A stretch of 32,000 bases of DNA from Candidatus Lokiarchaeum ossiferum. Lineage in GTDB: Archaea; Asgardarchaeota; Lokiarchaeia; Sigyniarchaeales; Promethearchaeaceae. Of this stretch, positions 1 to 27,068 are shown in pieces (the stretch's first letter is position 1; the number at the start of each line of letters is the position of its first letter). The position numbers were made by a program, and so were the translations under genes. Below the pieces are notes generated by a model. The model ran no database searches and was not told where the DNA came from. It worked only from the letters and a program-made list of their open reading frames with translations. Location: the NCBI GenBank assembly GCA_025839675.1, contig CP104013.1:5460001-5492000 (forward strand), given 5' to 3'.

Positions 1-1255
1 TATCATTGTCCATCTGCCACGTGGCTGTATTATGTTTAAGTAATCGGAACTCAGAAAATGTTTTAAACAAATTTTGAAAATGAGGTGCGGACATTTCTGA
101 AACTTGACTGGAAACTTTATTTGTCGAGAAATCAGAAAGAATTACACTATTCTCATTGATTAATAAGAGTGCTTGAGCATTAATTTCCTGTGCAAACCAT
201 TTCAATTGTTCGCGCAAAATCTCCCTATTTGGGGACATGAGCGAAATCCCTTCTGAAAAAGACTTATTGAGACTATAAGCGTTAAAGATTGATGTGTTAA
301 AAAATTTGACTCGAAAATCCTTGGAATTTTCAAGTATTCGATTTTTAAGCAATTCAATTTTTTTTGTTAACTCATGATCTTCTTTGATATCAGGATCAGC
401 TTTGTGAAAATTAACAACAATTGGTGGGTGTTGTTTAAAGGATCGAAATATATTTAAAATTTGAAAGAGAAATTCTAAGGCTTCCACATAACGCGTTTCA
501 TCTCTGATATCAATTAAAAAATTTAATAAATTGGTATCGAAGAGATAAAGATCGGCTTGTTTCAGAAAATTCTGCCGGTATTTTAGCTGTCCGCCCACAT
601 CCCATTCGAGTAAACTTTGCCCCAACATTTGATCTTGGGAACGTTCGATTCCTTTAGTGGGCTTTATTCCTGTTAGTTCACTATATCGTTGCTTAATAGC
701 TCTTAGATAACTTGTCTTTCCGCTCGCATCCAAACCAGTAAATAATAATTTCAATTTTCGTGCATTGCTTATCGGTGAATTTACGTTTGAAACAAATTTA
801 TCCACTTTTTCTAAAAGTTCCACCATAAATTCTTTTGAATCTTTTAGATAATTATCATGAGTTATTTTATCTGCTGTTTCTGAGAAATATATTGATAAAT
901 CCTTCATATTCTCATATAAGAACGCTGCATGATTTTCATCAACAAGAATTGAAATTGTGGAGGCTTTTGCTTGGCCGCGAGCTTCCTTATCGTGGATAAG
1001 GAAGAAATATGTTAATCCGGTGAGACATAAATCTGGAAATGGTAAGATACCGAAATATTTGATGGAATCAAAAACTTGCCCTTCTTGGTAGATTTGTTCT
1101 CCCATGAGAAGTGAAATAGTTTTCATTGAAATGTTGATCTTATGGATTTCTGACATGTCTTCTGGAAAAGTTACCACGGGGGTGGGACCTTCATACTCAA
1201 AGACGGCAAAAATCAAACCCTTTATTATATTCGTTAACGATATTGCAGTTCCCAA
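1..1255 (-). CDS. Rag/Gtr-like small GTPase with N-terminal longin-like domain and C-terminal roadblock-like domain (partial; C-terminus runs off the window)
   Basis: Absent from the supplied ORF track because it is open to the window edge. I translated the minus strand by hand and found no stop from 1255 down to position 2. An in-frame TGA lies just upstream of a TTG at 1255..1253. N-terminal part: IIKGLIFAVFEYEGPTPVVTFP...KTISLLM...YFGILPFPDLCLTGLTYFF...STISILVDENHAAFLY. GTPase motifs: G1 LLFTGLDASGKTS, G3 WDVGGQ, G4 FHKAD, G5 NTSIFN. Roadblock-like stretch: EINAQALLLINENSVILSDF. It is collinear with the 514-aa paralogue at 18137..19681. Confidence 0.75.
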   Translation of the reverse strand, partial: MGTAISLTNIIKGLIFAVFEYEGPTPVVTFPEDMSEIHKINISMKTISLLMGEQIYQEGQVFDSIKYFGILPFPDLCLTGLTYFFLIHDKEARGQAKASTISILVDENHAAFLYENMKDLSIYFSETADKITHDNYLKDSKEFMVELLEKVDKFVSNVNSPISNARKLKLLFTGLDASGKTSYLRAIKQRYSELTGIKPTKGIERSQDQMLGQSLLEWDVGGQLKYRQNFLKQADLYLFDTNLLNFLIDIRDETRYVEALEFLFQILNIFRSFKQHPPIVVNFHKADPDIKEDHELTKKIELLKNRILENSKDFRVKFFNTSIFNAYSLNKSFSEGISLMSPNREILREQLKWFAQEINAQALLLINENSVILSDFSTNKVSSQVSEMSAPHFQNLFKTFSEFRLLKHNTATWQMDND

Positions 1256-1337
1256 TATTACCCCTCAACATTTCAATCTAGAAAATGATCTATGTATCAC
1301 ATTATATTTCCTTCTATTTTATTTTATTTGTATCAAT

Positions 1338-2171
1338 ATGTCAGATGTTGATCGATTATTGAAGGATTTAATTAAGAATCTATACCTTTTATACGAGTTT
1401 GAGAAACCTTCCAATTATCCTATAAATTTTGATTCGGGTTTATCACTCTTAGACACACCTACGAAAGAAAAAAAGAATGAAATATCGAAAAAAAACTCTC
1501 GTAACTTTCAATTGAAGAAACAAACTTCCTCACAAAGCCAAATAAAATTTCAAAAAAGTATGATTCAAAAATTGATGGATAATACTTATAGATTTGTCCC
1601 TGAAAATCGCATCTTTAAGAATTATTTTCACTGTTTTCAATATGTTTCCACGAAGTACTCTATGGAGTCAATCATTGATTCATTTTCTTGGCAAGAATTT
1701 GAAAAATTCATTGTGACTGCTTTAAATCATTATGGTTTTCATGCTTTTCGGACATTTCGGTATACTATCAATGAAAAACGCCACGAAGTGGATATTATCG
1801 CACGTGAAAACCGCAAAATTCTATTTATTGATGCAAAACATTGGAGTTCCCGTACTGTGAATATGGGTGCTTTGAAAAAAGCAGCAGTAGATCAAAAATT
1901 GCGTGCTTTAAATCTAATCACTGATAGGGTTTTATGCGGGAAATTACTTGAAAACTTGCAATATTTACCTCAATCTAAATTTAGATCCTTCCAAATTTTT
2001 CCCATTATTCTCGTTTCCAATAAAATTCAACATTTTCACATAGAAGATGGAGTTCCCATTTTATCAATATCACATTTTAATCATTTTTTAAACAATTTTT
2101 CCAAAATTGAATTTGATCTATCACCAATTGATATGAAAACTATCAATTTTCAAAAGAAACTGAAATTTTAA
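1338..2171 (+). CDS. PD-(D/E)xK restriction-endonuclease-fold (Mrr-cat-like) protein
   Basis: The core WQEFEKFIVTALNHYGFHAFRTFRYTINEKRHEVDIIARENRKILFIDAKHWS matches the Mrr_cat pattern (helix, D, (D/E)xK = VDII...IDAK). I place the start at ATG 1338 (MSDVDRLLKDL...). The track start at 1104 would overlap the N-terminal coding region of the divergent GTPase gene. Confidence 0.5.
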   Translation: MSDVDRLLKDLIKNLYLLYEFEKPSNYPINFDSGLSLLDTPTKEKKNEISKKNSRNFQLKKQTSSQSQIKFQKSMIQKLMDNTYRFVPENRIFKNYFHCFQYVSTKYSMESIIDSFSWQEFEKFIVTALNHYGFHAFRTFRYTINEKRHEVDIIARENRKILFIDAKHWSSRTVNMGALKKAAVDQKLRALNLITDRVLCGKLLENLQYLPQSKFRSFQIFPIILVSNKIQHFHIEDGVPILSISHFNHFLNNFSKIEFDLSPIDMKTINFQKKLKF

Positions 2172-3154
2172 TCAATATTTTGAGGGTGCAAAATAAAATT
2201 GGTGTGTTCCTTAAGTTCCTCTGGAATTGATGCGATTCTATTTCCATTCAAAGTGAATCTTTTTAAATCGTAAAGCAATTCCAAATTGGGTGGGACATAT
2301 TCTATGAGATTGTGTGACAAATTTAATTCTTCAATATTGGGTAATTCGCAGATATGCTTTGGTAGACTTAAGAGTTTATTATTTTCCATAGATAATATTT
2401 TGAGATTCTTAAGATTTTGAATAAATTTTGGGAGGTAGGTAATTTCATTATTGCTCCCATAGATCTTTTCAAGTTTTTTTAATTCGATAATGGATTTTGG
2501 TAGGTGAGTTATTTGATTCTCTTCAAAATCCAACTCTTTTAGGTGTCTAAGGTCTTGAAAATTCGTTGGTAATGTTGTTAGTTGATTTTGACTGATTTTC
2601 AGAATGATTAAGTTAGAAAGATTTGAAAAATTATCGGGTAATGATTTAAACTGGTTGCGTTTTAAATCGAGATATTTTAAACTGGCTAACTTTGAAAATG
2701 ATGTGGGTAAAATTTGCATCACATTGTTGTAAGCCTTAAAGGTTTCTAATTTTCGCAAGTTTCCTATGCTTTGGGGTAAATATTCTAATTCATTGGAGGA
2801 AACATCTAAATAAACGAGTTGCTGACAGTTTTCAATGGATGGAGGTATTTCTTTAATTTTGTTTGATTCAATAACTAACGCTTTCAAGTGAGCCAAATTT
2901 CCAATATTCTCTGGAAGATTTTTAAGTCCTTTTGAATAAAGTCCTAAGCCGGTGACGTGGATTCCTTCTTGAAAATATCCAAAGGTGGAGTATTTAAATT
3001 TTGAAACAAGGGGTATTTTTTCGCCAAGCAATGTTTCTAATTCCATTAATACCTCATATTCTTCCTTAAGAAGTGAATTTTCATGGTATTTTTTCATGGT
3101 TTCCGAAGTAGTCATCAATAGAAATTGTGCTTTTATTTTTTTTAAACCTTCCAT
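2168..3154 (-). CDS. Leucine-rich repeat protein (about 10 repeats of 23 aa, cytosolic type)
   Basis: Tandem 23-residue units of the form LxxLxxLxLxxNxLxxLPxxI. Examples: IGNLRKLETFKAYNNVMQILPTS, FSNLSNLIILKISQNQLTTLPTN, IQNLKNLKILSMENNKLLSLPKH. No signal peptide or TM segment is visible. Its stop overlaps the convergent gene stop at 2168-2171. Confidence 0.85.
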   Translation of the reverse strand: MEGLKKIKAQFLLMTTSETMKKYHENSLLKEEYEVLMELETLLGEKIPLVSKFKYSTFGYFQEGIHVTGLGLYSKGLKNLPENIGNLAHLKALVIESNKIKEIPPSIENCQQLVYLDVSSNELEYLPQSIGNLRKLETFKAYNNVMQILPTSFSKLASLKYLDLKRNQFKSLPDNFSNLSNLIILKISQNQLTTLPTNFQDLRHLKELDFEENQITHLPKSIIELKKLEKIYGSNNEITYLPKFIQNLKNLKILSMENNKLLSLPKHICELPNIEELNLSHNLIEYVPPNLELLYDLKRFTLNGNRIASIPEELKEHTNFILHPQNID

Positions 3155-5968: not shown

Positions 5969-5973
5969 GTTAA

Positions 5974-5989
5974 TTTTTTCCTTTTTTTT
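5974..5989 (+). terminator. Oligo-T tracts (T6, T8) directly after paralogue 1 stop
   Basis: ttttttccttttttttc begins 6 nt after the TGA at 5966-5968. Oligo-T termination is established for archaeal RNAP. Confidence 0.45.
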
Positions 5990-6222
5990 CCGGACTTCCC
6001 CTATTTCGTTTAAATCAATTTCTTTCATGTGGAGAATGGATACTTTTATAAAAATCACAAAACATGAAAATTGAAAATACAACAGATTAGTACCTATATA
6101 TAAACCGAGCTAATGTTTTTTGTGAAAGTTCATTTTTTTCTCCATCAATAAGTCAGAACTCAAGCAAATCTTTTTTTAATTAAACACCCAAAATAAAATA
6201 ATCTTTCAAAAATGTGAACATC

Positions 6223-8895
6223 ATGTCAAATTTTTCTTCCCTAGCTTCAATTAAAGATAAAATTTCCATCCCCACTTTAGTAGGAGTTGTGATTTCCATC
6301 TCAATGTTTGCGGGGTTAAATTTTTTTTTTGAAGCAAGCCAAAAGGCAAATTTTAATGAGGCTTTTACGAATTGTAATGATATCGAAATCTATCATGAGC
6401 ATGAAATTTGGTATGATGGAGGAGGGGGACGTCATTGTTTTCCAAACCTTCAATTTACTGAGACATTCAAGGCAACTGATTCAAAAGTTAATTCTTTAAT
6501 AAAAAATTCGTCCTTAAAAATTTCAAATGTGAGTAAATCTGCTTCAATTGTGTTTGACAAGGGTTATCTTGTGATAGACCAATATAATCTCACGGGATGT
6601 GAAAATGCTATGAGTAAGGAGGAATATTTGTTGCTAATGAATTCTACTATTACAGGATTTGAATTTTTTGAGTCCAATTTTTATCAAACAGATACTTTTC
6701 ATGATTGTTTTAAGGTTATTGAAGGAGAAACACCAAAAAATTATTCACAATGTTTGATTGACTATACAACAGCTCTAAAATTAGGTTTAAAGGTGGGCGA
6801 ATGTCATAATATTATAATGCGGGAGGGAAGCATTTGGAAAAATCCTTTACTTAATTTTCCCGTAAATACTATGATGCGAGATTATCTTATTGAAAATATG
6901 ACCATTTGTGGAATTTATCTCCCCAAATCCTATAAAACTCAATTTAACGAAGAGTTCTATAAATTTTCATACAATTATGAGGATTATCAAAGTGGAAAAA
7001 ATTATTCTCAAACATTTATTGAAAATCCCGTGATTTTCTGTTGGTCTAACTTCTCGATGCAGGGACAAAATTCTCCTGCTCACTTTTTAATTGAATCCAT
7101 GATGAAGGATCCCGAAAATTTTCAATGGAGAACTGGGCGATTTTTTATTAATGGGGCTACAGGAACGGCATATACTTATTTGTATGAACGCGGAACTCTT
7201 GACTATCAAAATATAAATCAGGATTCAAAACAAATTTATATGCAAATCTATAACATTTCAAACCATCTTCCCTTCTATACTGGAATCCGAAGTTATGTGG
7301 AGTTTACAATGCGACAATTTTTGACAGATATGCAAGATTTTCGCACCAAACTGTTCTATATGAGTCTTCCAATGATGATTTCTACTATTCTTATTGGTTC
7401 CAGCTTTCAGAAATCCATTGAAAAAAAGCGTCTTAATGAACTTTTTTTATTACGTTGTAAAGGAATGAGCAAAAAAAATATTAGATCCGTAATTGCTACA
7501 GAAGGTTTGATATTTATTCTAATTTCCTGGGTATTAGGAATAATATTCGGATGTGTGTTTTTCTATCTTTATTATTTTTTTATGGGAGATCTCTTTCTTA
7601 CCAATAATTATGGAAATTTTATGGTTCCATCAATATCTTCTACTCCTCTGATCATTTCAGGGATAATTTGTAGCCTTGAAGTTGCCCTTATTTATTTTCC
7701 ACTTTGGAAAAAAATTAAAAATCAACACTTCAATGAATTAAATCTAGCCCTTAATTCTCCCTTTGCAGATTCAGAAGAACATTTTGATGAAGTTCAGCAT
7801 AAAATTGATGTAAGCTTAAGGAAAAATCGCACAAATAAAAAAATTTTCACTTCTAAATCCAAAAAAAACTCTTTTCAGAATGATTTAAATCATCATCCAA
7901 AAAATGATTCAACATCCAATCAAACCCCTAAAGACCTTGGTTTAGAAAATGAGATGGGATTTCAACTTCCTAGAATAAAACCCATTTTGTATAAATCCAT
8001 TAAATTTTTAGCCATTGTATTTCTCCCGCTAATTTTTTGTCTTTTAACTGTACTGAGTTATTTTATTCCCATGCCGGATCAATTTTCAACTTTTTCTCAT
8101 TATTTTAAATCCAACTCTTTCATTCTTGAATTAATAATGATGAGCTCTTTAGTATTAATCACTGTCAATTTTTCTCGAATAATATTTCAAGAAAATCCCT
8201 CTATTTTTATTAGAATTGTACGCCGCATTTCTCATTTGTTTGTGAAAGATTATGACAATCTCATCTCGTTAGAATTAGTCGGTAAACGAAAATGGGTGAA
8301 TTATTTAATTTTGGTCTCGAGTTTTACAGGTCTCGTGGTTTTGACAGATTTCATGATGCAAAATAATTTGAAAATTCTCACGATTCTAGAGAATTTTCTA
8401 AATCTGACATACAATGTTGGACTGGATGCACTCCCAGGGGATAACATTTTTGATTCTTTCAATTTTTATCAGCTGTTCTTTAGATTTTTAGTCGTTTCCA
8501 GTTTTTTCATAATCATTGAATCAGCATTGTTGCAAATATTGCTCTACAAAGAAAATCACATTTTAAACCAAAGCCTTAGTATACGGGGACTTACCAATTC
8601 TACGCTATATAAAATATTATTCTTTGAATCGGTTATTGTTTTTATTTTTGGAATAGTAATCGGATATATCATAGGAATTGGATTTGGTCTACTTCTATCC
8701 TTTATCAATTTCTTGAAATGGCAACTCGAATATTTCCAGCATCTTGAAATGACAGTAAGTTTTGAATCTTGTATTGGGTTAGAAAATGGGAATATTTTGT
8801 TACTCCTTCTTAGTATTTTCATATTGAGCATTTCTCTTTTCTTTATTTATGTAATTAATCGAAGGAAGCTAACTCCACGGCCAAACGAATTGTAG
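6223..8895 (+). CDS. Double FtsX-module integral membrane protein, paralogue 2
   Basis: Collinear with paralogues 1 and 3. Shared motifs: EASQKANF, ICGIYLP, FCWSNFS, FINGATG, KRLNELFLLRCKGMS, HFNELN.ALNSPFADSEE, ENHILNQSLSIRGLT. I prefer ATG 6223 (MSNFSSLASIKDKISIP) over the track GTG 6214 because it gives the same N-terminal length as the other two copies. Confidence 0.75.
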   Translation: MSNFSSLASIKDKISIPTLVGVVISISMFAGLNFFFEASQKANFNEAFTNCNDIEIYHEHEIWYDGGGGRHCFPNLQFTETFKATDSKVNSLIKNSSLKISNVSKSASIVFDKGYLVIDQYNLTGCENAMSKEEYLLLMNSTITGFEFFESNFYQTDTFHDCFKVIEGETPKNYSQCLIDYTTALKLGLKVGECHNIIMREGSIWKNPLLNFPVNTMMRDYLIENMTICGIYLPKSYKTQFNEEFYKFSYNYEDYQSGKNYSQTFIENPVIFCWSNFSMQGQNSPAHFLIESMMKDPENFQWRTGRFFINGATGTAYTYLYERGTLDYQNINQDSKQIYMQIYNISNHLPFYTGIRSYVEFTMRQFLTDMQDFRTKLFYMSLPMMISTILIGSSFQKSIEKKRLNELFLLRCKGMSKKNIRSVIATEGLIFILISWVLGIIFGCVFFYLYYFFMGDLFLTNNYGNFMVPSISSTPLIISGIICSLEVALIYFPLWKKIKNQHFNELNLALNSPFADSEEHFDEVQHKIDVSLRKNRTNKKIFTSKSKKNSFQNDLNHHPKNDSTSNQTPKDLGLENEMGFQLPRIKPILYKSIKFLAIVFLPLIFCLLTVLSYFIPMPDQFSTFSHYFKSNSFILELIMMSSLVLITVNFSRIIFQENPSIFIRIVRRISHLFVKDYDNLISLELVGKRKWVNYLILVSSFTGLVVLTDFMMQNNLKILTILENFLNLTYNVGLDALPGDNIFDSFNFYQLFFRFLVVSSFFIIIESALLQILLYKENHILNQSLSIRGLTNSTLYKILFFESVIVFIFGIVIGYIIGIGFGLLLSFINFLKWQLEYFQHLEMTVSFESCIGLENGNILLLLLSIFILSISLFFIYVINRRKLTPRPNEL

Positions 8896-8897
8896 AA

Positions 8898-8907
8898 TTT
8901 TTTTTTT
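8898..8907 (+). terminator. T10 tract 3 nt after paralogue 2 stop
   Basis: tag aa tttttttttt gtg. Confidence 0.5.
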
Positions 8908-9024
8908 GTGATATTTCAATTTTCATTATTGTAATAATTTTAAAATTGAGACTGAATTGATAAGTTCATGAATATCAAGACTAAATAATGGACGGAGAAA
9001 GATATTTTTTTTAATAATTATCGC

Positions 9025-9033
9025 AAATTATAT
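9025..9033 (+). promoter_or_regulatory. TATA-box-like element about 28 nt upstream of the paralogue 3 ATG (would imply a leaderless or near-leaderless mRNA)
   Basis: aaattatat is centred about 28 nt before ATG 9057. No SD-like sequence lies between them. Spacing fits the archaeal TATA-to-TSS distance. AT-rich background makes chance matches likely. Confidence 0.3.
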
Positions 9034-9056
9034 GTATCAGAATATCGTGGTTCACA

Positions 9057-11711
9057 ATGGTCAAATTTAGCGGAATCTTTAAGTTAAAAAGCAAAATCTA
9101 TCTCCCAACCTTAATTGGGATTGTCCTCTCAGTTTCAATGTTTGCAGGATTAAACTTCTTTTTTGAAGCAAGTCAAAAAGCCAATTTTGATGAAGCTTTT
9201 TCCAACATATCCGATATTGAAGTATATCATAGCCATGAAATATGGTATGATGGAGGTAGGCATTGTTATCCGAACACGAAATTCAGTGAATTATTTACAG
9301 AAAATGATCAAAAAATTCAGTCACTAATGGAAAATTCAACTTTGAAGATTAAAGAATTTTCAAGATCGAGTTCTGTCATTTTTGACAGAGGATATTTAGT
9401 CTTAGATGAATATCAGCTTTATGGATGTCAAAATGCTACCGATGTTCTGGATTATTTTTTTTTGATGAACTCTACACTGTTAGGTGTTGAATCCTTTGAA
9501 TCAAGTTTTTATCAATCGGAGTATTTTTCGACTTATTTCAAGCTGATTGAGGGACATGTTCCTGAAAATTCATCCGAATATTTAATTGATTATATTACAG
9601 CTCTGAAATATGGTCTAACCGTTGGAGATATGAAAAATTTTACAATAAGAGAAGGAAATGTTTGGCGTAATCCTGATCCTACTATAAGAGTTGCTCCTCG
9701 GATGCTTGATTATTCCTTTGAAAATTTGTCTATATGCGGAATTTATTTGCCGAAGTATTACAAAGCCAAATTTAATCAAGAATTTTTTTCTTTCTCATAT
9801 AATTTTGAAGATTACCAAAATGGAAAAAAATATACTCAAGAATTTGTTGAAAAGCCCATTTTTTTTTGTTGGTCAAATTTTTCGAATCCTACTTGGGATA
9901 ATCCAGTGAATTCTTTAATTCAAGCAATGAAAAATAATTCTGCAAATCGTAATTGGAAAAATGGTCGTTTTTATTTAAATGGGGCAACAGGATCTGCCTA
10001 TATATATCTGTATGAACGTGATACTCTTAAATACAGGAATATTAATACTGATTCAAAACAAATTTATGTGCAGATGCGAAATATCTCGAGTAATTTACCT
10101 ATTCGTGTGGAAATCCGCAGTTACGTTGAATTTACAATGAGACAATTTTTATCCGAAATACAAGATTTTCGCACTAAACTATTTTTCATGAGTATTCCAA
10201 TGATATTTTGCGCGATTCTAGTGGGATCGAGTTTACAAAAATCGCTTGAAAAAAAACGACTTAATGAAATTTTCTTACTCAGATGTAAGGGTATGAGTAT
10301 TAGAAGTATAAATCTTCATATTTTTAAGGAAATATCTATTGTGATAATTTTTTCTTGGATTTTAAGTATTCTATGTGGTGTTTTGACATTTTATTTATAT
10401 TACTTATTCATGGGGAATATTTTTATCAAATCAACCTTTGAAGGTTTCTTAGTGCCTTACATTTCAGTAAATCCTTTAATCATCTCGTTAATCATATGTA
10501 CCTTTGAAGTATTAATTATTTATTTACCGTTGCGCAAAAAAATCAAGAATCAACATTTCAATGATCTGAATCAATCTTTAAATTCACCCTTCGCTGATTC
10601 TGAAGAATTTTTTGACAATGTACAACAAACCATTCAAGTAAGTATAAATAGAAGGAATCGTCTGAAGCAATTTTTTGTAAAAAGAGCACGAATAAAGAAG
10701 AAAATTAATTCCATGACTGGAGAAAATTCAACTAATTCCCAAAATTGGAAAGACGTTGACCTTTATTATGATCCTGAAGAATATCACTTCCGATTCAAAT
10801 CATTTCTTTTTAAGACAGTCTTAATCTTTGTTATTGCGATCTTCCCATTGTTTTTAATAAGTGTAACAATTCTCAGCTATTCTATGACGTTACCAGATAA
10901 TTATAGCGGATATATTACGTTTTGTAAGAAAAACCCATTTTTACTTGAAATTCTTTTGATGTGCTCGATGGTGTTAAATACGGTGGGGTTATCTCGAATT
11001 TTATTCCAAGATAATCCATCCTTATTTACACGATCTGTAAAATATTTCTCACATTTCATTGTAAAAGATTTTGACACGCTAATTTCAATGGAATTGATTG
11101 GCAAAAAAAAATGGTTAAATATTTTAATATTATTTTCAAGTTTTATTGGGCTCCTAGTTTTTACGAATTTCATTTATCAAAGTAATATTATTTACTCAAC
11201 TCTTATGCAAAATAATGGTAGGGTTCATTATTTTGTTGATTTAGAAGCGAATCAAAGTGTAGTGTTAACTTCTCTTGAATTTTATAACTTCTTCTTTAAG
11301 TTTTTAATTTCTTCAAGCCTCTTCATTTTAGTAGAGTCTGCGATTTTACAAATGCTTCTGTTCAAGGAAAATCATATTTTAAATCAAAGCTTGATGATGC
11401 GAGGTTTAACCACTTCAATTTTGTACAAAATCTTGTTTTTTGAATCTGCCATAATTTTCCTGTTTGGAACCATTATAGGGATTATAATTGGAATTGGTTT
11501 TGGGCTACTTGTATCTTTCAATAATTTCCTCAAATGGCAATGGGAATATTTCCAATATATGGATCATTCAATCGGATTTGGATCCATTATCCATCTTGAG
11601 GTAGGAAAAGTATTGTTAATTATTTTAACATTATTTTTCCTTAGTGTTTCACTCTTTTTTATCTATGTCATTAACCGGAAAAAGCTTACACCTCGTCCAA
11701 ATGAGTTATAA
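9057..11711 (+). CDS. Double FtsX-module integral membrane protein, paralogue 3
   Basis: 884 aa, collinear with paralogues 1 and 2. Shared motifs: KRLNEIFLLRCKGMS, HFNDLNQSLNSPFADSEE, ENHILNQSLMMRGLT, and the C-terminus INRKKLTPRPNEL. Confidence 0.75.
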   Translation: MVKFSGIFKLKSKIYLPTLIGIVLSVSMFAGLNFFFEASQKANFDEAFSNISDIEVYHSHEIWYDGGRHCYPNTKFSELFTENDQKIQSLMENSTLKIKEFSRSSSVIFDRGYLVLDEYQLYGCQNATDVLDYFFLMNSTLLGVESFESSFYQSEYFSTYFKLIEGHVPENSSEYLIDYITALKYGLTVGDMKNFTIREGNVWRNPDPTIRVAPRMLDYSFENLSICGIYLPKYYKAKFNQEFFSFSYNFEDYQNGKKYTQEFVEKPIFFCWSNFSNPTWDNPVNSLIQAMKNNSANRNWKNGRFYLNGATGSAYIYLYERDTLKYRNINTDSKQIYVQMRNISSNLPIRVEIRSYVEFTMRQFLSEIQDFRTKLFFMSIPMIFCAILVGSSLQKSLEKKRLNEIFLLRCKGMSIRSINLHIFKEISIVIIFSWILSILCGVLTFYLYYLFMGNIFIKSTFEGFLVPYISVNPLIISLIICTFEVLIIYLPLRKKIKNQHFNDLNQSLNSPFADSEEFFDNVQQTIQVSINRRNRLKQFFVKRARIKKKINSMTGENSTNSQNWKDVDLYYDPEEYHFRFKSFLFKTVLIFVIAIFPLFLISVTILSYSMTLPDNYSGYITFCKKNPFLLEILLMCSMVLNTVGLSRILFQDNPSLFTRSVKYFSHFIVKDFDTLISMELIGKKKWLNILILFSSFIGLLVFTNFIYQSNIIYSTLMQNNGRVHYFVDLEANQSVVLTSLEFYNFFFKFLISSSLFILVESAILQMLLFKENHILNQSLMMRGLTTSILYKILFFESAIIFLFGTIIGIIIGIGFGLLVSFNNFLKWQWEYFQYMDHSIGFGSIIHLEVGKVLLIILTLFFLSVSLFFIYVINRKKLTPRPNEL

Positions 11712-11998: not shown

Positions 11999-12988
11999 TT
12001 ACAAAATGCTTTTCAAAATTTTAATAAATGAAATAACTTCTTCTCGTTTAAAGGATCCAGTTCCTTTCTGCTTCATAAGCAAGATATAAAGAGGGTCTTG
12101 GGTTTTTTCAATATTAAATTGATCGATATAAAATTCATTATCACCCCGTTCCACTATCATTTCAGTTACACCTTCATCTTGCTTTTCCAAAGTATCACTT
12201 AGGGTTAAGAAATATGGCGTACTGTTTGCAAGAATTTGTTTTGAGGTATTGTCTGCAAAATGTTGTCCAATAACCAATGAATTGGAATCCAATACTATTG
12301 ATGCATTAGAATTGATCTTACCTGAAAATTCTTTAATCGTTTTATCTAAAAGTTCGGATTGGGGGTAAAGTTGGAGCAATATTTCACTAAAGACACTGAT
12401 AATCGACCATAGATCAAAGATCGTTGTTTCTGTAAAGGAAACATTAAATTCTTCATTAACAATTTTTCTAACGTTCTCTTTAATCTCAGAAATAAATCCC
12501 TTTAAGTGAACACCTTTTTCCTTGACATAATCTGGATCATTTTTATGGAAAAGGATGTAAATGAAAGGTTCAATATTCAAGGTTTTAAATTGTTTTATTA
12601 CATCAGCAAAATATGACAAAGATTCAGCAATACGTGGTTTATCTTGAACATCTATCATATAGATACACACCGAAGTATTATCGAAGTACTTAGTTGGTTC
12701 TTTCAAATACGCTATACGATATCTCTCCTGCCCCCCAAGATCCCATTCCGATATTTGTTTTCCTAAGTAATTGAAGATCGCTCGTTGGGCTTGTCGAGTT
12801 GGCTTTAGCATGGCAATTTGAGAAATCTCTCTCTGAAGTAGTTTGATTATTGTCGTTTTTCCTGAATTATCCAACCCTGTGAAAAGAATCTTTTCTTGTA
12901 CTTGGCGAATCTCTGATTGTTTTTGCTTCTCTTTCAGTGTTTCTCCTAAATCTTGAGCAAACTGTGCGTCTTCTTTATTATTTTTCAT
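11999..12988 (-). CDS. Rag/Gtr-like GTPase with C-terminal roadblock domain (full Rag architecture)
   Basis: G1 ILFTGLDNSGKTT, G3 WDLGGQERYR, G4 FHKNDPD, G5 TETTIFD. The segment TTIFDLWSIISVFSEILLQLYPQSELLDKTIKEFSGKINSNASIVLDSNSLVIGQHF aligns by eye with my recollection of human RagA: [56 protein letters not shown]. Confidence 0.8.
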   Translation of the reverse strand: MKNNKEDAQFAQDLGETLKEKQKQSEIRQVQEKILFTGLDNSGKTTIIKLLQREISQIAMLKPTRQAQRAIFNYLGKQISEWDLGGQERYRIAYLKEPTKYFDNTSVCIYMIDVQDKPRIAESLSYFADVIKQFKTLNIEPFIYILFHKNDPDYVKEKGVHLKGFISEIKENVRKIVNEEFNVSFTETTIFDLWSIISVFSEILLQLYPQSELLDKTIKEFSGKINSNASIVLDSNSLVIGQHFADNTSKQILANSTPYFLTLSDTLEKQDEGVTEMIVERGDNEFYIDQFNIEKTQDPLYILLMKQKGTGSFKREEVISFIKILKSIL

Positions 12989-13207: not shown

Positions 13208-13744
13208 TTGAAGTTAATTTTAATGGGAAATCCATCTTCAGGTAAAAGTTCAATACTATATCGATTGTTTTCAAGAGAATTTCAATTGGCGTACATGCCT
13301 ACAATCGGAATGGATTATTATGAAAAATTTTTCTCAAAATATAATATTCTTGCTAATTGTCTCGATTTTGGAGGGATTGATGTGATTGATGTCATAAATT
13401 CTCCATTTTTTAAGGAAGTTGATGTTGTGTTATTTGTTTGCGATATATTTGATAACTACAATCAAAAAAGTTTTTTGAAATTATCTCATTCAATAAAAAA
13501 TCAGAATTCTCAAAAGGTGCACTTTATTATTGTTCGGAATAAATGCGATTTAAATCCTATAACAAATGGAGAATCTCAAAAAATCGACCGATTTTGTGGA
13601 GTTAATGAATTTAAATATATTCACTTATCAGCTAAAACTATGCAAAATTTTGATCTTCTAAAGAAAGCATTATTTTCATCTTTTTCAGACCAAAAAGAAC
13701 AAATTTCTTGTCTAAATTGTTCTACGATTTCAGATTACAATTAA
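13208..13744 (+). CDS. Ras/Rab-like small GTPase, catalytic Gln absent
   Basis: G1 LMGNPSSGKSS, switch I YMPTIGMDY, G3 LDFGGID (DxxG present, Gln replaced by Ile), G4 VRNKCDL, G5 LSAKT. The TTG start at 13208 is needed to encode beta-strand 1 (KLILMG). The next ATG would start inside the P-loop, and an in-frame TAA lies 37 nt upstream. Confidence 0.75.
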   Translation: MKLILMGNPSSGKSSILYRLFSREFQLAYMPTIGMDYYEKFFSKYNILANCLDFGGIDVIDVINSPFFKEVDVVLFVCDIFDNYNQKSFLKLSHSIKNQNSQKVHFIIVRNKCDLNPITNGESQKIDRFCGVNEFKYIHLSAKTMQNFDLLKKALFSSFSDQKEQISCLNCSTISDYN

Positions 13745-16355: not shown

Positions 16356-16377
16356 TTTTTTTTAAAAACTAAATTTG

Positions 16378-17055
16378 ATGATAATCATGAAAAATGTACC
16401 CATATCCGATGAATTATTCAATAGAGTTATGAAATATCAAGAAGATAAAAGCCTTGAAGCCTTTGAACCCGTCGCAAAACGAATGATGGGGATCTATGAT
16501 CTTTCTCCGACTCAAGAAAAGAAAATAATGTTGATTGGGGAAGCAGGTGTTGGAAAATCGACTATCCGACAAACCTTTTTCAACTATGACGATCCAAAAA
16601 AAATGCTTGAAAATTCTCTAGAGCCAACCCGTGGAGTTGAAAATTTCAACTATATTATTTCTGACATTAATCTCCTTGTGTTGGATACTGCGGGTCAAGA
16701 AATAGAAGAATTACTTGAAAAAGATCCTGAAATGCATTTTAGCGACGTTGATGCTGTAATATATGTCGTAGATGCTTCCAAATATCAACAAGAGAATATG
16801 AAAATCTATGATTTACTCTATAGAATTAACAAAACTGCGAAATTTTATTCTCCTGAAGTGAAAATTTCGCTATACTTACATAAAATCGATTTGATCAAAG
16901 AAGATGCTGTAAAAACCTTTAAATTCCGTGCGAATTCTCGTCATAAAGGATATGAGTTAACAGAAAAAATTGAAATTCCCATGTTTTTTACTAGCATTGA
17001 AAAGGAGTTTATTAAGCAATTAGAACTCGCATTCTTAAATCTTTTTTATTTATAA
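16378..17055 (+). CDS. Rag/Gtr-like small GTPase, GTPase domain only (no roadblock C-terminal domain)
   Basis: G1 LIGEAGVGKST, switch I EPTRGVE, G3 LDTAGQE, G4 LHKIDL (Rag-type HKxD), G5 FFTSIEKE (compare Rag FRTSIWDE). The protein ends 18 residues after G5. Start is ATG 16378 (track TTG 16375 also possible), 19-22 nt after the upstream stop. Confidence 0.75.
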   Translation: MIIMKNVPISDELFNRVMKYQEDKSLEAFEPVAKRMMGIYDLSPTQEKKIMLIGEAGVGKSTIRQTFFNYDDPKKMLENSLEPTRGVENFNYIISDINLLVLDTAGQEIEELLEKDPEMHFSDVDAVIYVVDASKYQQENMKIYDLLYRINKTAKFYSPEVKISLYLHKIDLIKEDAVKTFKFRANSRHKGYELTEKIEIPMFFTSIEKEFIKQLELAFLNLFYL

Positions 17056-18136: not shown

Positions 18137-19681
18137 ATGATTAATAAAAATGAGAGTGAAAAAGTATCTTCCTATCCCTTTAATGATTTGCTTGTGAAAG
18201 GATGTGTATTCTCAATCTATTCTGATATGGGTCCTGAAGCAATTTTGTGTTATCCATTACCAAAAGATACATCTTTTTCCTTACTTGATCTTTCCTCTCA
18301 TATATCATCTTTTTCTCAACGTAATTACATGCAAGTTGCTGTAAAAAGCATTTCATTGTTATTGACGGATTATTCTTTCGAAGATAAATCAAATAACTAT
18401 CTTGAAAATATTCATATTTTTGGAGTTTTACCCTATCCAGATATGAAATGTGTCGGTTTGACCTATTTTTGTTATTATTTTTCTTCTAAATCTGATCAAT
18501 ATATACCTGCTACCATTACATTATTTGTACATGAAGATCATAGAAATTTTATTTATGATGCTTTTGATAGATTGAAGCAAGATATACAAAATTTTACTTC
18601 ATCTCTTATTAAGGTGTGTCAAGATCACCATATTTCGTCAGAATTGGGGGCTCAAGATTTTTGGGTGGAAAATTTACCTCGATTCATTAATTTCTTTCAA
18701 AAAATTGAAAAAATCCAATCAAAACCCATTTCGCCTATTACCCAAAAACGGCGGATCAAAATATTATTTACAGGATTAGAAAATACGGGGAAAACAAGTT
18801 TCCTTTTAACAATAAAACGAGAATTCAGTGCATTGCCCAGTTTACTCCCCACCACTGAACCAACAAAGGATAGTCTTGATTTTTTGGGAACAACGATTAT
18901 GAAATGGGATATCCCAGGTCAGAAAGTATTACGGGATGCTATTCTTAAGAATGCTGAACGCTATCTCTATGATTCAGATGTTATCTATTACTTTATTGAT
19001 ATTCAAGATCCACAAATTGCTGATTCTAAGATATTTTTAAGTCAGATTGTTTCTAGTTTAAGTCTATCAGGAATAAAAGTTCCAATTATCTTCATCTTAA
19101 CAAAATGTGATGAAGATATTATTCATTCCAGTAAAATAGCAAACCAGATCCAACACGTAAAAACAATTTTTTCTAATATAGTCAAGGATGTTCCTCATAA
19201 ATATTTTGAAACCTCTATTTTTTCTGATTATAGTATTTTAAATGCTTTTAGCTATGGAATTCGTCAATTATCTCCAAATAAAGAAATGTTAGAGCATCTC
19301 ATGTGGGAATTTATTGGTAGATTGGGTATGATAACTGGTCTCCTATTAAACGAGAACGGAATTGTAATTGCTTCTGCCGATATCTCAGATGGGGATACGA
19401 CAAACAAATTTCCCCATAGTCGAATCTTTGAAATTGCTGCACCTCAGTTTACCACAATCGCTCGCCAGTTTACCCAATATAATCCTCACAAGAGAAATGA
19501 TCTTATTAAATATCAATTTTCAAATGATGATATTGTGCTTCTAAAGAAATTTAAAATACTCGATTTTATGTTTTTCTCCTTATTTTACACAAAGAAACTT
19601 GAGTCCGTGGATCAGCTTGAGCAGAATTTTCCTGTTTTTATAGAAAAGATAAAAAATTTAATAGAAATGTATATTTCTTAA
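18137..19681 (+). CDS. Longin-like / Rag-type GTPase / roadblock-like three-domain protein
   Basis: N-terminal part: VKGCVFSIYSDMGPEAILCYPLP...VKSISLLL...IFGVLPYPDMKCVGLTYF...ATITLFVHEDHRNFIY. GTPase motifs: G1 ILFTGLENTGKTS, G3 WDIPGQ, G4 LTKCDED, G5 ETSIFSD. Roadblock-like stretch: RLGMITGLLLNENGIVIASADIS. Confidence 0.8.
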   Translation: MINKNESEKVSSYPFNDLLVKGCVFSIYSDMGPEAILCYPLPKDTSFSLLDLSSHISSFSQRNYMQVAVKSISLLLTDYSFEDKSNNYLENIHIFGVLPYPDMKCVGLTYFCYYFSSKSDQYIPATITLFVHEDHRNFIYDAFDRLKQDIQNFTSSLIKVCQDHHISSELGAQDFWVENLPRFINFFQKIEKIQSKPISPITQKRRIKILFTGLENTGKTSFLLTIKREFSALPSLLPTTEPTKDSLDFLGTTIMKWDIPGQKVLRDAILKNAERYLYDSDVIYYFIDIQDPQIADSKIFLSQIVSSLSLSGIKVPIIFILTKCDEDIIHSSKIANQIQHVKTIFSNIVKDVPHKYFETSIFSDYSILNAFSYGIRQLSPNKEMLEHLMWEFIGRLGMITGLLLNENGIVIASADISDGDTTNKFPHSRIFEIAAPQFTTIARQFTQYNPHKRNDLIKYQFSNDDIVLLKKFKILDFMFFSLFYTKKLESVDQLEQNFPVFIEKIKNLIEMYIS

Positions 19682-20715: not shown

Positions 20716-21294
20716 GTGCCTGAAACAATTAATGTTGAAAATAAACGCCATTCTGCTACATACAGTATTCAAAATATTGTTGTTTCAGTGGAATTAAATC
20801 GTGATATTAATCTTAAAAGTATTTGCGAAGCATATAAAGATGCAGAAGAAAATTTAAACAAGTTTCCGGGAATTTGCCTGCGCTTGAAAAAGCCAAAATG
20901 TGCAATCTTGTTGTTTTCCAACGGTAAAATGGTAATTACTGGATTAAAATTATCAAAAGATGCTCCGGTTGTAATAAATCGGGTTATTGATCGATTAAAC
21001 GCGATTGGTATTGAAATAGTTGATGATCCAGAGTGGCGCCTTGTTAATTTAGTTTTAAGTTTAAATTTTCGGCAATCAATTCCTTTAGATGAAGCTGCAT
21101 TACTTTTATCTCATAGTATTTATGAACCCGAAGTCTTTCCTGGTTTAATTTTCCGAATTCAAGAACCTAAAGCAGTTTTTCTCATTTTTAGTTCTGGAAA
21201 GGTTGTTTTAACAGGTTTGAAAGCCGAAAGCCAAATTTTACCTGCAATTAAACTCTTGGGCAAAACATTAAAAGAAAATGGTTTGCTCAACTAA
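20716..21294 (+). CDS. tbp: TATA-box binding protein (archaeal TBP)
   Basis: Two internal TBP repeats. Repeat 1: IQNIVVSVEL...FPGICLRLKKPKCAILLFSNGKMVITGLK. Repeat 2: LVNLVLSLNF...FPGLIFRIQEPKAVFLIFSSGKVVLTGLK. GTG start. Confidence 0.9.
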   Translation: MPETINVENKRHSATYSIQNIVVSVELNRDINLKSICEAYKDAEENLNKFPGICLRLKKPKCAILLFSNGKMVITGLKLSKDAPVVINRVIDRLNAIGIEIVDDPEWRLVNLVLSLNFRQSIPLDEAALLLSHSIYEPEVFPGLIFRIQEPKAVFLIFSSGKVVLTGLKAESQILPAIKLLGKTLKENGLLN

Positions 21295-21383: not shown

Positions 21384-23003
21384 ATGGATGCAAATAAGCC
21401 AGCTGTTTATATTCGGGGGATTTATTCTACTGCCCTAACAAAAATATTCATTGACGCGGGATATCCAATCATTTTCGCATCAAAAGAAATTCGAAAACGC
21501 TTTAATCTCCCATTTAGGCCCAAAAAAGGATATTCAAAAGATATAACTATTAGAGATCGGCTTGATAAACAAGGAGTATCAATCATGTTTAAAAAGCACG
21601 TATGGGAAAAACTTGAAGCTGAAGAATTCAAAGATTTTCCATTGTGGCAAACCAATAATGCTAATTTAATAGTATATAAAGCACGTTTTCACAAAAATGC
21701 TATTTATCGCGGGTTGATTGTTAAATCTAATCGCAATTTTAATTATTCTTATGTTCGTCTTGCCCCAGAATCAATAAATAAAAATGGAGAGCTGGATTCA
21801 GATGATTTTAAAACAACAGTTGCTAGATATGCTCGTTACATCCCTGATTCAAAGGAAGGTATTTTTCAAATCACGCATGAAGATAGCGGTGAAAATTATG
21901 CTTCACTTGGGTCATTTTATACGATTCCAGGAGATTTGATCGTAATCGTACCCTACAATAATAAAGTTATTATCAGCAAAGAAATTACGTATGGGAAGCA
22001 AAAAAAACGTTTATTTGATCTTGGTAAAGAAATTCAACAAACTAAAAAATATGGATTCATATTTCGAACTGCTGCGGAATTAGCAACTAATGACGAAATA
22101 CTCGAAGAGGTAGATCGCTTAGAAAAAGATCTAATTCAAACACAAACTGATATTACACAATTCCCAGATCGGATTGGAGAAATTTATTCTAACTATCGTT
22201 CAATTAATGTTATATTTCCAGCTCAAATGAAAAATGAGTTGGATAATATTCGAAGAACAATCTTACCTACTCTTGAGTCTCACCATATTATTAAATCGTT
22301 GCCAGTGTGGAAAAAAACTGCAAGTGAGCCGAAAAAAGATGATAATAAATTCCAAGACCGAAGAAAATATGATAAAAAGCAATCATTTCGTGAAGAAGAT
22401 GAAGGACAATCTTTGAATTTTGGAAAACTCGTAGATTTTACCGAAAATTTGTTGAAAGGCGTAGACTCATCCCAACATGACACAATACATCAAAATTTCT
22501 TGCATGAATATTACAAAGAAATATTAAAAACCCGGAAATCCTTCTCTGTTTCTCATCAAAAATTAAGTGGAAAAACAATCCATCTATCTTCTGGATATAT
22601 TAAAGCAGTAGAGCTTGAATCTAATCTGCAAAATAAAGTTGTTTTAAAACGAAGAATGCGTGAAGGTGGATTGTATGATGGGCTAAACACGCCCATTGAA
22701 TATGGGGATTATGCTATTGGTGAATATACTCAAGGAAGTTGGTACTATGTGAGTTCCTATTATTCAGCCAACAATGAACTCAAGGGAAGATATTACAATG
22801 TCAATACTCCGATCGAAATTACCGAAGCTGGGATTCATTACATCGATTTAGAGGTGGATGTGGTGGAAAACATGGTTGGAGAAAGAAAAATTATTGATAA
22901 AGACATTTTAGATCATGCTTTGGACATGGGCTTCATTTCTGAGGAAATGTATGCTAAAGCGATAACTCTCGCCGAAAATATTGTAGAAGGACGGGTTGTT
23001 TAA
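21384..23003 (+). CDS. fau-1: FAU-1-type RNA-binding protein / RNase E/G-like ribonuclease with C-terminal DUF402 domain
   Basis: The N-terminus VYIRGIYSTALTKIFIDAGYPI matches the FAU-1 family signature (IRGIYATALTKLL). The C-terminus NELKGRYYNVNTPIE...IHYIDLEVDVV matches the DUF402 pattern. Confidence 0.65.
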   Translation: MDANKPAVYIRGIYSTALTKIFIDAGYPIIFASKEIRKRFNLPFRPKKGYSKDITIRDRLDKQGVSIMFKKHVWEKLEAEEFKDFPLWQTNNANLIVYKARFHKNAIYRGLIVKSNRNFNYSYVRLAPESINKNGELDSDDFKTTVARYARYIPDSKEGIFQITHEDSGENYASLGSFYTIPGDLIVIVPYNNKVIISKEITYGKQKKRLFDLGKEIQQTKKYGFIFRTAAELATNDEILEEVDRLEKDLIQTQTDITQFPDRIGEIYSNYRSINVIFPAQMKNELDNIRRTILPTLESHHIIKSLPVWKKTASEPKKDDNKFQDRRKYDKKQSFREEDEGQSLNFGKLVDFTENLLKGVDSSQHDTIHQNFLHEYYKEILKTRKSFSVSHQKLSGKTIHLSSGYIKAVELESNLQNKVVLKRRMREGGLYDGLNTPIEYGDYAIGEYTQGSWYYVSSYYSANNELKGRYYNVNTPIEITEAGIHYIDLEVDVVENMVGERKIIDKDILDHALDMGFISEEMYAKAITLAENIVEGRVV

Positions 23004-24824: not shown

Positions 24825-27068
24825 ATGTCTGTAACTGATAAGTTCATTTCTCTTCCGAATAAATCTCCAAAGTGTACTTTTTCCTTAGAAAATTTTCCTG
24901 GAATTGGAAAAAAAATTCGGGAAAAACTGTTAAATTACTATTCTAATGAGAATGATGCGTTAAAAGCTATTCAAGTTGGTGCTGTTGGATGTGTTCCTGG
25001 AATTTCATTTAAACAAGCATTGAAATTTGCTCAAACCTATTTCGAATTAACTGAAGAGGTTTCATTGATAGACGTTCTAGTTACTCCAGATATTACCGAA
25101 ATTTATGACAATGTTATTGGGCATATTGAAAAATATGCCAGAACTAACTACTCTAAACTAAAATTACGCTTATATTTTCCCTTACCTTCACATAAAATTC
25201 AATTGATCAAAGAAAGACAACAATATTTTTATAAATCGATTCAATTTGTCCAAAAACACAGTCAAAATTTAAAAGAGCGAGGGTTTTCTAAATTGCTTTC
25301 TGCTTTGGATAATTTAAAACAAGGTGAGGATTTTCCGAAAATCCGTTCACGCATTATAATTACTGATTCTCAAAAAGTTGAAAATTTTCTAGTTGAAGAA
25401 GATATTATTTCTTCAATTGTGTTTGAAAAAATTAATTTCAGCAAGATAACTGATAATTTGAAGTTTTTCCAAAATTACAGCCGAAATTTTGATGTGGTAA
25501 TTTATTGTGGGGATCATTCAGAAAAAATCCCTGCTTTTTCTAATTTAATAACCATTCCATCAAAAAATATGTCTATTGAGACACTTGTTCCCGAAAAAAT
25601 AATTCGTGTTTTTGGATTTAATAAAAATATTATCCAGTCTATGATTAGGATCGTTGTCAATTTAAAAAATCTTAAAGAAGAAAAATTAATTAATCATTTT
25701 TTATCTCACTTCGATATAAAAAAAATAAGAACCCTGAAAGAAAATACATCCATCTTGGATGAAAAAGGCGAAATTCTCTCGAAGATAGATTCTACTCTAG
25801 ATGAATTCCGTGCGATTGCCGATGAATTTTCTTCTTTGGTTGGTGAAACAGAATCTTGGATCAATGACCAAATTCAAAGTGAAATAGGTCAACGTTCAAT
25901 TCAAATTCAAGGTAAGCAAATTTTAGATTTGATCCGGACTGATTTATCCATTGAACAAGTTCGCAATTATATACCAGCTGAAGTCGATGAATTAATCGAA
26001 GAAACCATTCATAAAGGACTTGAAACACTCTGTAAACAGTTACATTTAGGAAAACAAGATCAGGATTTAACATTGAATTTAATTCCCGAAATCATTGAAT
26101 TTCCCATACAGCTTAACACTCAAGAATGCGATGTGTTAGAAAAGAAAATATCAGCTCGTTTAAATACACATAAATACTCTGTAATGGTGAAAATTGCAAG
26201 TCAATTGAGTGAAACTTATGAATATCTCCTACAACTTCATCAAATTTTGCTTGAATTCGACTTTTTTTATACTATCGGGACCTTTGCTCATCAATTTGGA
26301 TTATCAATCCCTCAAATTCTAGAAAAACAATATGGTTTTTTTGGGACCAATTTGACCAATTTAGAGTTAAAATCTGAAAAGATTTCTAACCAAGATTCAA
26401 AAAAGAATGATCCCGAACCAATTCCAATTACTTATCAACTAGGATCTTGTACAGATTCTAAAATTCCTGAAATTACGCCTGCGACCCTCTGTCTATTGAC
26501 GGGGAGCAATTCAGGTGGAAAAACAATGTGCATAAATACTTGTTCACAAGCAATTATATTAGCTCAAATGGGATTTCCATCTTTGGGAGATCTAAAATTT
26601 CATCCTTTTGATGAATTATATTATTACAAAAAATCAAGTGGTCAACTATCTGCTGGGGCTTTTGAGACTACGCTTTTGCAATTTGTTCAATTAGCTCAAT
26701 CCCCGAAATTGAAGATTGTTTTTGCCGATGAATTAGAATCTATAACTGAACCAAATGCAGCATCAAAAGTTCTTTCTGGAATCTTCTCTTTATTGCTACA
26801 AAATCCCAATAATTTTGGTATTTTTGTCACTCATTTAGCTGAGTTGCTTCAAACGAATTTCACAGCAAAACAAAAGAATTCTATCCGTATTGATGGAATT
26901 GAAGCCACAGGATTGGATAAAAATCTCCATTTAATCGTTGATCGAAATCCAAGATTCAACTATGTTGCCAAATCAACACCAGAATTAATCCTAACTCGAT
27001 TGGCAAAATCTGGTTCCAAAGAACAACAATTATTCTTTTCAACTATTCTTAAATTATTCAATCATTGA
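24825..27068 (+). CDS. MutS2-like (MutS domain V ABC-type ATPase) protein with N-terminal helix-hairpin-helix, no Smr domain
   Basis: HhH-like FPGIGKKIREKLLNYY, Walker A LLTGSNSGGKTMCI, Walker B VFADELESITEP, and VTHL. The protein ends about 110 aa after Walker B, so there is no room for an Smr domain. Confidence 0.7.
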   Translation: MSVTDKFISLPNKSPKCTFSLENFPGIGKKIREKLLNYYSNENDALKAIQVGAVGCVPGISFKQALKFAQTYFELTEEVSLIDVLVTPDITEIYDNVIGHIEKYARTNYSKLKLRLYFPLPSHKIQLIKERQQYFYKSIQFVQKHSQNLKERGFSKLLSALDNLKQGEDFPKIRSRIIITDSQKVENFLVEEDIISSIVFEKINFSKITDNLKFFQNYSRNFDVVIYCGDHSEKIPAFSNLITIPSKNMSIETLVPEKIIRVFGFNKNIIQSMIRIVVNLKNLKEEKLINHFLSHFDIKKIRTLKENTSILDEKGEILSKIDSTLDEFRAIADEFSSLVGETESWINDQIQSEIGQRSIQIQGKQILDLIRTDLSIEQVRNYIPAEVDELIEETIHKGLETLCKQLHLGKQDQDLTLNLIPEIIEFPIQLNTQECDVLEKKISARLNTHKYSVMVKIASQLSETYEYLLQLHQILLEFDFFYTIGTFAHQFGLSIPQILEKQYGFFGTNLTNLELKSEKISNQDSKKNDPEPIPITYQLGSCTDSKIPEITPATLCLLTGSNSGGKTMCINTCSQAIILAQMGFPSLGDLKFHPFDELYYYKKSSGQLSAGAFETTLLQFVQLAQSPKLKIVFADELESITEPNAASKVLSGIFSLLLQNPNNFGIFVTHLAELLQTNFTAKQKNSIRIDGIEATGLDKNLHLIVDRNPRFNYVAKSTPELILTRLAKSGSKEQQLFFSTILKLFNH

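Follow-up and report, generated by a model that had tools for sequence, protein, structure and literature searches.

Whether the longin domains of Asgard archaea act as GTPase-activating proteins (GAPs), and for which GTPase, is the question raised by a 32,000-nucleotide stretch of the Candidatus Lokiarchaeum ossiferum genome (positions 5,460,001 to 5,492,000 of contig CP104013.1, assembly GCA_025839675.1; hereafter the window). Eukaryotic nutrient signalling to mTORC1 is built around Rag GTPases and their longin-domain GAPs (folliculin, GATOR1), and the window carries two paralogous genes whose products each combine a longin domain, a Rag-like GTPase (G) domain and a roadblock domain in one chain, the longin-GTPase-roadblock (LGR) architecture. 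The first of them, open reading frame (ORF) A, occupies positions 18137..19681 of the plus strand (514 amino acids, ATG start) and was characterized from the ORF list, Pfam matches and AlphaFold2 (AF2) models. Its paralogue B was located by six-frame translation, BLASTP and Pfam at positions 2..1255 of the minus strand, with a TTG start at 1255; 418 amino acids (aa) are visible, the window edge removing the C-terminus (last ~50-60 aa). We consider it moderately probable that A and B are Rag switches of the LGR class, with B providing a candidate GAP module and A a non-catalytic partner, and that the two cooperate with the product of a third Rag-like gene, GR (G domain plus roadblock), that lies between them.

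The homology of the two proteins extends over their whole length (30% identity over 449 columns, BLASTP E 3e-64). The first-pass annotation of this DNA had described the architecture as present twice, at 18137-19681 and at 1-1255; the duplication stands, but the second copy runs on the minus strand, from 1255 down to 2, and a plus-strand paralogue was ruled out by stops throughout all three plus frames. The proposal that the N-terminal regions form a shared paralogous domain was borne out by their comparison alone (A 1-200 versus B 1-161), which gave an E-value of 8e-18 at 24% identity, so that the shared motifs reflect homology and not chance. The motif pairs in A and B are KGCVFSIYSDMGPEAILCYP / KGLIFAVFEYEGPTPVVTFP, IFGVLPYPDMKCVGLTYF / YFGILPFPDLCLTGLTYF and TITLFVHEDHRNFIY / TISILVDENHAAFLY. 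Three of the four motif patterns previously quoted read as written, while the first residue of '(I/V)K(T/S)ISLL' is V in A and M in B. Before the P-loop, which spans residues 213-220 in A and 174-181 in B, there are 212 and 173 aa, respectively, and not about 190 in both proteins as given earlier. We found 41 homologues of ORF A, of 490-585 aa; in the A-family alignment (34 members) the residues G32, K70, P99 and D102 are invariant, with conservation of 90% or more at P33, P40, S73, L74, G96, P101, T109, F111, R136 and Y140.

The claim that longin, Rag GTPase and roadblock modules share one chain is supported by the AF2 model of full-length A, which was built on 34 family members and contains three folded units in that order (predicted local distance difference test, pLDDT, 80.8; predicted TM-score, pTM, 0.78). 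The Rag/Gtr-type G domain of A spans residues 207-378 (18755..19270, plus strand), as located by Pfam, motif coordinates and phmmer against the PDB, and that of B lies at ~236-760 on the minus strand. Both proteins exceed the 22-bit cut-off of Pfam Gtr1_RagA (PF04670), A with 64.6 bits (1.2e-17) and B with 81.6 bits (7.6e-23), and both have intact P-loop, DxxG and [TH]KxD motifs: GLENTGKT 213-220, DIPGQ 258-262 and TKCD 322-325 in A, where TSIF follows at 359-362, and GLDASGKT, DVGGQ and HKAD in B. The Rag-like G5 motif and the sequence downstream of it read 'ETSIFSDYSILNAFSYGIRQLSPN'. In phmmer searches of the PDB, A matched 8yl2 (3.2e-24), 8zla (5.7e-20), RagC (~1e-4) and also Gtr2. The C-terminal domain of A (residues 382-513; 19280..19675, plus strand) has the α-ββ-α-βββ-α topology of a roadblock domain according to DSSP of the AF2 model and to Foldseek; only the start of the corresponding domain of B is visible (2-229, minus strand). 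Foldseek comparison of the full A model with the PDB was led by 8yl2 'LokiRagO' (E 2.5e-20) and by 8zla and 9m28 'LokiRagM', followed by RagA/RagC and Gtr1/Gtr2 (E 1e-17 to 1e-12, ~320 columns). The alignments with RagA, RagC, Gtr1, Gtr2 and LokiRagO extend over 300-330 columns with a target TM-score of ~0.7 and thus cover both the G and the roadblock domains, whereas Arf-like proteins match the G domain of A only (~1e-9). The earlier Rag GTPase and roadblock assignments are both upheld by these results.

The N-terminal domain of A (residues ~13-196; 18173..18724, plus strand) was delimited on an AF2 model of residues 1-200 (pLDDT 88, pTM 0.85) and by Foldseek; its counterpart in B lies at ~791-1255 on the minus strand. 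The secondary structure elements assigned by DSSP (β1 20-29, β2 32-39, α1 61-76, β3 93-100, β4 105-116, β5 121-132, α2 133-163, α3 176-195) follow the topology β-β-α-β-β-β-α-α, without an N-terminal helix, which is that of a longin. The best Foldseek neighbour in the PDB was 8yqg, the longin of a Lokiarchaeota roadblock-longin protein (E 2.5e-7; TM-score 0.57 by query and 0.71 by target), followed by the Kluyveromyces lactis Lst4 longin (E 2.9e-4), FNIP2 in the folliculin complex (E 1.2e-3), GATOR1 chains (NPRL2/3; E 4e-3 to 1e-2), folliculin itself (E 2.6e-2) and C9orf72-SMCR8 (E 3.9e-2), while no SNARE, SRX or sedlin longin occurred among the top 50 neighbours. These models support the assignment of the predicted N-terminal domain of A to the longin class of folliculin/FNIP/Lst4, NPRL2/3 and SMCR8/C9orf72. 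A longin of folliculin type had been guessed earlier from the motif pattern, and the Foldseek run then recommended, carried out here on the A 1-200 model, placed longins at the top of the list. The likeness to DENN proteins suggested at the same time was not sustained: neither A nor B has a DENN match in Pfam, and the longin is followed not by a DENN core but, after a linker of ~11 residues with a conserved P-I-S-P-I-T, by the G domain.

In longin GAPs the catalytic arginine finger is located in the β4-β5 hairpin (R164 in FLCN, R78 in NPRL2). A GP motif has been described for FLCN, NPRL2, SMCR8, C9orf72 and Asgard longins; GP motif and arginine finger together are common to FLCN, NPRL2, SMCR8 and one class of Asgard longins, and this pair separates GAP longins from non-GAP longins (PMC12290439). 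Both proteins of the window have the GP motif. In A it is G32-P33 in the β1-β2 turn (18230..18235, plus strand), with G32 invariant and P33 at least 90% conserved, and in B it is G23-P24 (1184..1189, minus strand), both invariant in the B-type set. The proteins differ in the hairpin. In B the alignments reveal the ARG motif A92-R93-G94 (974..982, minus strand), whereas the hairpin of A (residues 116-121, SSKSDQ; 18482..18499, plus strand) contains no arginine, as seen in a per-sequence motif table. Only G23, P24, P31 and R93 (B numbering) are invariant among 27 B-type-related longin domains. When the B-type profile was aligned to FLCN by hhalign (E 0.035, not significant alone), the GP motif fell on G14-P15 and ARG on A163-R164-G165 ('SLARG'); in the alignment with NPRL2 the arginines are out of register. 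The human NPRL2 and FLCN query sequences are 100% identical to PDB chains, and these alignments serve for register and not as proof of homology.

All A-clade sequences in which the hairpin region is visible are without the ARG motif, except the 202-aa P0042 ('KRG'). The two clades also differ at the catalytic glutamine after DxxG: in the A clade this position varies (Q, K, A, S, N, M, T), while the B clade keeps D-x-G-G-Q with its glutamine conserved. The conserved R136 of A was considered as a relocated finger and rejected, since it aligns with FLCN R179 ('MMDRIYL') and not with R164; its place at the end of strand β5, far from the GP motif, also disfavours it. The longin of B is thus a candidate GAP module, because it combines the GP motif with an invariant hairpin arginine at the position of FLCN R164, and its target would be its own G domain or that of a partner. 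A catalytic GAP role of the A longin is unlikely because the hairpin arginine is missing; by analogy with FNIP, NPRL3 or C9orf72, it would more probably serve as a non-catalytic partner.

We used the N-domain profile to search 1.84 billion representative proteins, and only 98 relatives were obtained. Their architectures include LGR, a longin with a Ras/Rab-type G domain (~340-350 aa), proteins of ~287 aa, tandem longin-longin proteins and stand-alone longins. In the ~287-aa relatives the longin occupies the C-terminal half, and these are presumably of the roadblock-longin type of 8yqg. The conserved A-R-G in the hairpin before strand 5 is found in the B clade, the longin-Ras proteins and the ~287-aa proteins, and the GP motif together with R93 is invariant across LGR, longin-Ras, roadblock-longin and other architectures. 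The longin with both GP and ARG is fused to a Ras/Rab-type G domain in the Asgard proteins P0097, P0098, P0102, P0109, P0110, P0112, P0114, P0124 and P0130, so that this longin type is not confined to Rag-like partners. Four proteins (P0087, P0101, P0105 and P0108; 323-395 aa) appear to have two longin-like domains in tandem, and would represent a single-chain version of a longin dimer. With respect to Pfam Folliculin (PF11704), paralogue B scores 20.3-21.5 bits, below the curated cut-off of 23.3 bits, while 15 of the 27 B-type-related longin domains have a match at E <= 0.1 and the full-length longin-Ras protein P0098 reaches 27.1 bits, above the cut-off. In searches of PDB sequences the sole match of the A-type N-domain profile was 8yqg, at a marginal E of 0.049, and the N-domain of B alone had no match. 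A word-indexed search with the B-type longin profile returned Lokiarchaeia-type fragments only and no eukaryotic proteins.

A subclade of A-type LGR proteins (P0036, P0037, P0039-P0041, P0043, P0044 and P0047; 530-682 aa) is marked by a long charged insertion that separates strand 2 of the longin from helix 1. Its members have lost the DxxGQ motif (e.g. WDVGEWE, WETDPDI), and in some the P-loop has GKN; judged by these motifs, they may be pseudo-GTPases.

The same data bear on a reading in which the longins of both paralogues are non-catalytic platforms, serving for dimerisation, localisation or as scaffolds of the guanine nucleotide exchange factor (GEF) type, as in TRAPP, Mon1-Ccz1 and DENN proteins, and in which the arginine of the B family is structural. 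It accords with the general observation that most longin and roadblock domains are platforms or GEFs rather than GAPs (PMC10933270, introduction), with the union of one longin type with Ras/Rab-like G, roadblock or other longin domains, as expected for a general adaptor, and with the lack of the arginine in the 8yqg longin and the whole A clade. Nonetheless we regard it as unlikely, given that R93 and the GP motif are invariant across four architectures, that this pair marks GAP longins (PMC12290439), and that the Foldseek neighbours are longins of GAP complexes and not those of TRAPP or SNARE proteins.

A candidate GAP role for B has further points to contend with, as has the proposed division of labour. 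The 8yqg longin belongs to the same family as the ARG longins (A3 profile, E 9.4e-21) and has the GP motif, yet reads 'KEPEK' where the others have 'eaRGg'; the candidate finger is absent, and the arginine is therefore not universal in the family. Sequence comparison with the eukaryotic GAPs is weak: the A-type profile gave no significant hhalign match to human NPRL2 or FLCN (E 0.19 and 0.51), there is no Pfam Folliculin match for the A type, ORF A included, and the E 0.035 alignment of the B-type profile with FLCN has a low probability. The suggestion that the longin of A could pair with one that carries the arginine, for instance the B longin, is purely inferential. The gene cluster is not an operon, since its genes lie on both strands and, in the window, several kb of other genes separate them.

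The case for joint action of the three proteins comes from gene order. The GR gene (11999..12988, minus strand; 329 aa; Pfam Gtr1_RagA, 5.1e-24) encodes a G domain and a roadblock domain without a longin, and its product matches PDB 8yl2 at E 4.1e-127 (phmmer), which identifies it as the orthologue of the crystallised LokiRagO, a homotetrameric RagA-like GTPase. In related loci with enough flank, the GR gene is placed between the B-type and A-type LGR genes. The recurring order is B-type LGR (minus), Mrr-like nuclease (plus), GR (minus), SLOG protein (minus), AIR-synthase-related protein (minus), A-type LGR (plus), a protein of unknown function (minus) and an RNase E/G-like protein (plus). It was observed in MK-D1, two Promethearchaeum metagenome-assembled genomes (MAGs), three other Promethearchaeota/Promethearchaeia MAGs and one Hermodarchaeota MAG. 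Among the loci with enough upstream sequence, the GR gene was present in 10 of 10 and the B-type gene in 7. The MK-D1 locus (L006), examined in a reference-genome scan, encodes an orthologue of A with 56% identity in conserved synteny, with B-type and GR genes upstream. In the window the cluster is stretched by inserts, which include a leucine-rich-repeat (LRR) gene, three FtsX-like permease genes, two small-GTPase genes and others. The conservation of the B, LokiRagO-like GR and A neighbourhood suggests that the three Rag-like proteins work together.

Rag/Gtr GTPases are obligate dimers joined by their roadblocks, in which one subunit has the opposite nucleotide state to the other. On the precedent of Rag/Gtr and of MglB/roadblock proteins, the roadblock domains of A and B would mediate dimerisation, and the longin would form a built-in platform on a G domain that controls its nucleotide state. 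A more ambitious reading, to which we assign a low probability, regards the B LGR protein, the LokiRagO-like GR and the A LGR protein as an archaeal forerunner of the Rag heterodimer with its longin-heterodimer GAP (FLCN-FNIP or NPRL2-NPRL3). In such a forerunner the roadblocks would dimerise below the G domains while the fused longins pair above, and R93 of B would fire hydrolysis in the partner's G domain. If true, this would mean that the partnership of Rag and longin GAP predates eukaryotes, and it would answer which GTPases the GP-motif longins of Asgard archaea act on. Regulation in cis, the self-regulating form raised in the first-pass annotation, would have the longin pack against the G domain of its own chain and serve as an intramolecular GAP or as a lock on the nucleotide state, so that no separate regulator is needed. 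This reading would suit the short (~11 residues) and conserved linker, the defined inter-domain arrangement suggested by the pTM of the full-length monomer model, and the GP motif plus hairpin arginine of B, but it appears doubtful because A is without that arginine and because the known longin GAPs all work as longin dimers that target a Rag dimer in trans (established for FLCN-FNIP2 and GATOR1; PMC12290439), which favours the trans reading over cis.

A and B can be compared with the known eukaryotic systems. Like A and B, eukaryotic RagA-D and Gtr1/Gtr2 have a G domain with a C-terminal roadblock, Pfam Gtr1_RagA and the Rag-like G5. Their HKxD motif is kept in B and replaced by TKCD in A, and the archaeal proteins have an extra N-terminal longin of ~170-200 aa. 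To our knowledge, these archaea have no Ragulator, mTORC1 or lysosome, the partners of the eukaryotic Rag proteins. The longins of FLCN-FNIP (Lst7-Lst4), GATOR1 NPRL2-NPRL3 and C9orf72-SMCR8 share the fold and the GP motif with A and B; the finger arginine of FLCN, NPRL2 and SMCR8 has its candidate counterpart in B and its relatives only, A being without it. In contrast to these complexes, A and B have no DENN or NPRL-specific C-terminal domain, and the sequence similarity is marginal. Among solved structures, LokiRagO and LokiRagM (8yl2, 8zla, 9m28) come closest to the G domain and roadblock of A, and they are without an N-terminal longin.

The first-pass annotation had implied that the one-chain architecture was new, which is not the case. 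In their modelling of the complete set of 74 small GTPases from Promethearchaeum syntrophicum MK-D1, Tran et al. 2024 (Commun Biol, PMC10933270) coded WP_147663364.1 and WP_147663355.1 as 'LGR' (supplementary Fig. 6); the sequences of these two proteins in the supplement match the A and B families and have the same three-domain order, and Liu et al. 2020 had reported Rag-family GTPases fused to longin domains in general terms, as well as an abundance of NPRL2-like and FLCN-like longins in Asgard archaea. Since the longin-GTPase-roadblock architecture is published for the MK-D1 orthologues, its novelty here is low. In published AF2 homodimer models of the LGR proteins from MK-D1, the subunits contact each other through roadblock or longin domains (PMC10933270, supplementary Fig. 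8). That paper classes the N-domain as 'longin' only (in one panel as 'X'), whereas we place it in the folliculin/NPRL2/SMCR8 class; the split into arginine-bearing and arginine-less types is made here and not there; and the conserved neighbourhood is not described there, the authors stating that genes for small GTPases do not, in general, share operons with those for regulators. The GP-motif longins of Asgard archaea (PMC12290439) and 8yqg belong to the same longin family as A and B and share the GP motif, but they are described as stand-alone or roadblock-longin proteins, while in A and B the longin forms one covalent chain with a Rag-like G domain. Neither 'fused' nor 'GTPase domain' occurs in the text of PMC12290439 (Traffic 2025), which leaves open which GTPase family these longins serve. 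Our literature search returned no paper describing 8yqg or LokiRagO/LokiRagM. The separation of an arginine-bearing B from an arginine-less A, as read from the alignments, is an incremental addition to the published LGR work, and the three-gene Rag neighbourhood is likewise an incremental one.

The wider interest of the locus is that, in the archaea most closely related to eukaryotes, a longin of the folliculin class and a Rag-like GTPase form one covalent chain; this fusion provides evidence that both modules worked together before eukaryotes arose. To this the window makes modest additions, namely the A/B arginine split and a neighbourhood that includes the already crystallised LokiRagO. A, B and GR constitute a concrete three-protein set with which a GAP function of Asgard longins, and the GTPase it would serve, could be tested.

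The window as a whole is archaeal, with a TATA-binding protein gene (20716-21294), and AT-rich (G+C content 31.6%). Small-GTPase genes are unusually dense, five of them lying within 20 kb, and a leucine-rich-repeat gene is also present. Besides the Rag-like genes discussed above, there are genes for a Ras/Rab-like small GTPase (13208-13744, plus strand; 178 aa) and for a Gtr1_RagA-like protein with a G domain only (16375-17055, plus strand; 226 aa); except for a weak Ras match in one locus (L013), these two have no counterpart in the syntenic loci of other genomes. FtsX-like permease domains occur in three tandem paralogous genes at 3323-11711 (plus strand; 881, 893 and 884 aa), for which no tblastn match was obtained in related loci, and the trio therefore appears to have been inserted into the Rag cluster of this genome. 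The Mrr/NERD-like nuclease ORF as listed (1104-2171, plus strand) shares ~150 bp with the 5' end of paralogue B; because alignment with its homologues from other genomes begins only at residue ~100, the true start is probably near 1400. The LRR protein (2168-3154, minus strand; 328 aa; LRR_8, 2.6e-36) is encoded adjacent to paralogue B, and another locus (L005) has an LRR gene, 42% identical to it, upstream of the GR gene. Downstream of ORF A there are genes for an RNase E/G plus DUF402 protein (21384-23003, plus strand; 539 aa) and for a protein of 747 aa that matches MutS domain V/AAA weakly (24825-27068, plus strand). In MK-D1 and related MAGs both are conserved at 60-63% identity, again downstream of the A-type gene.

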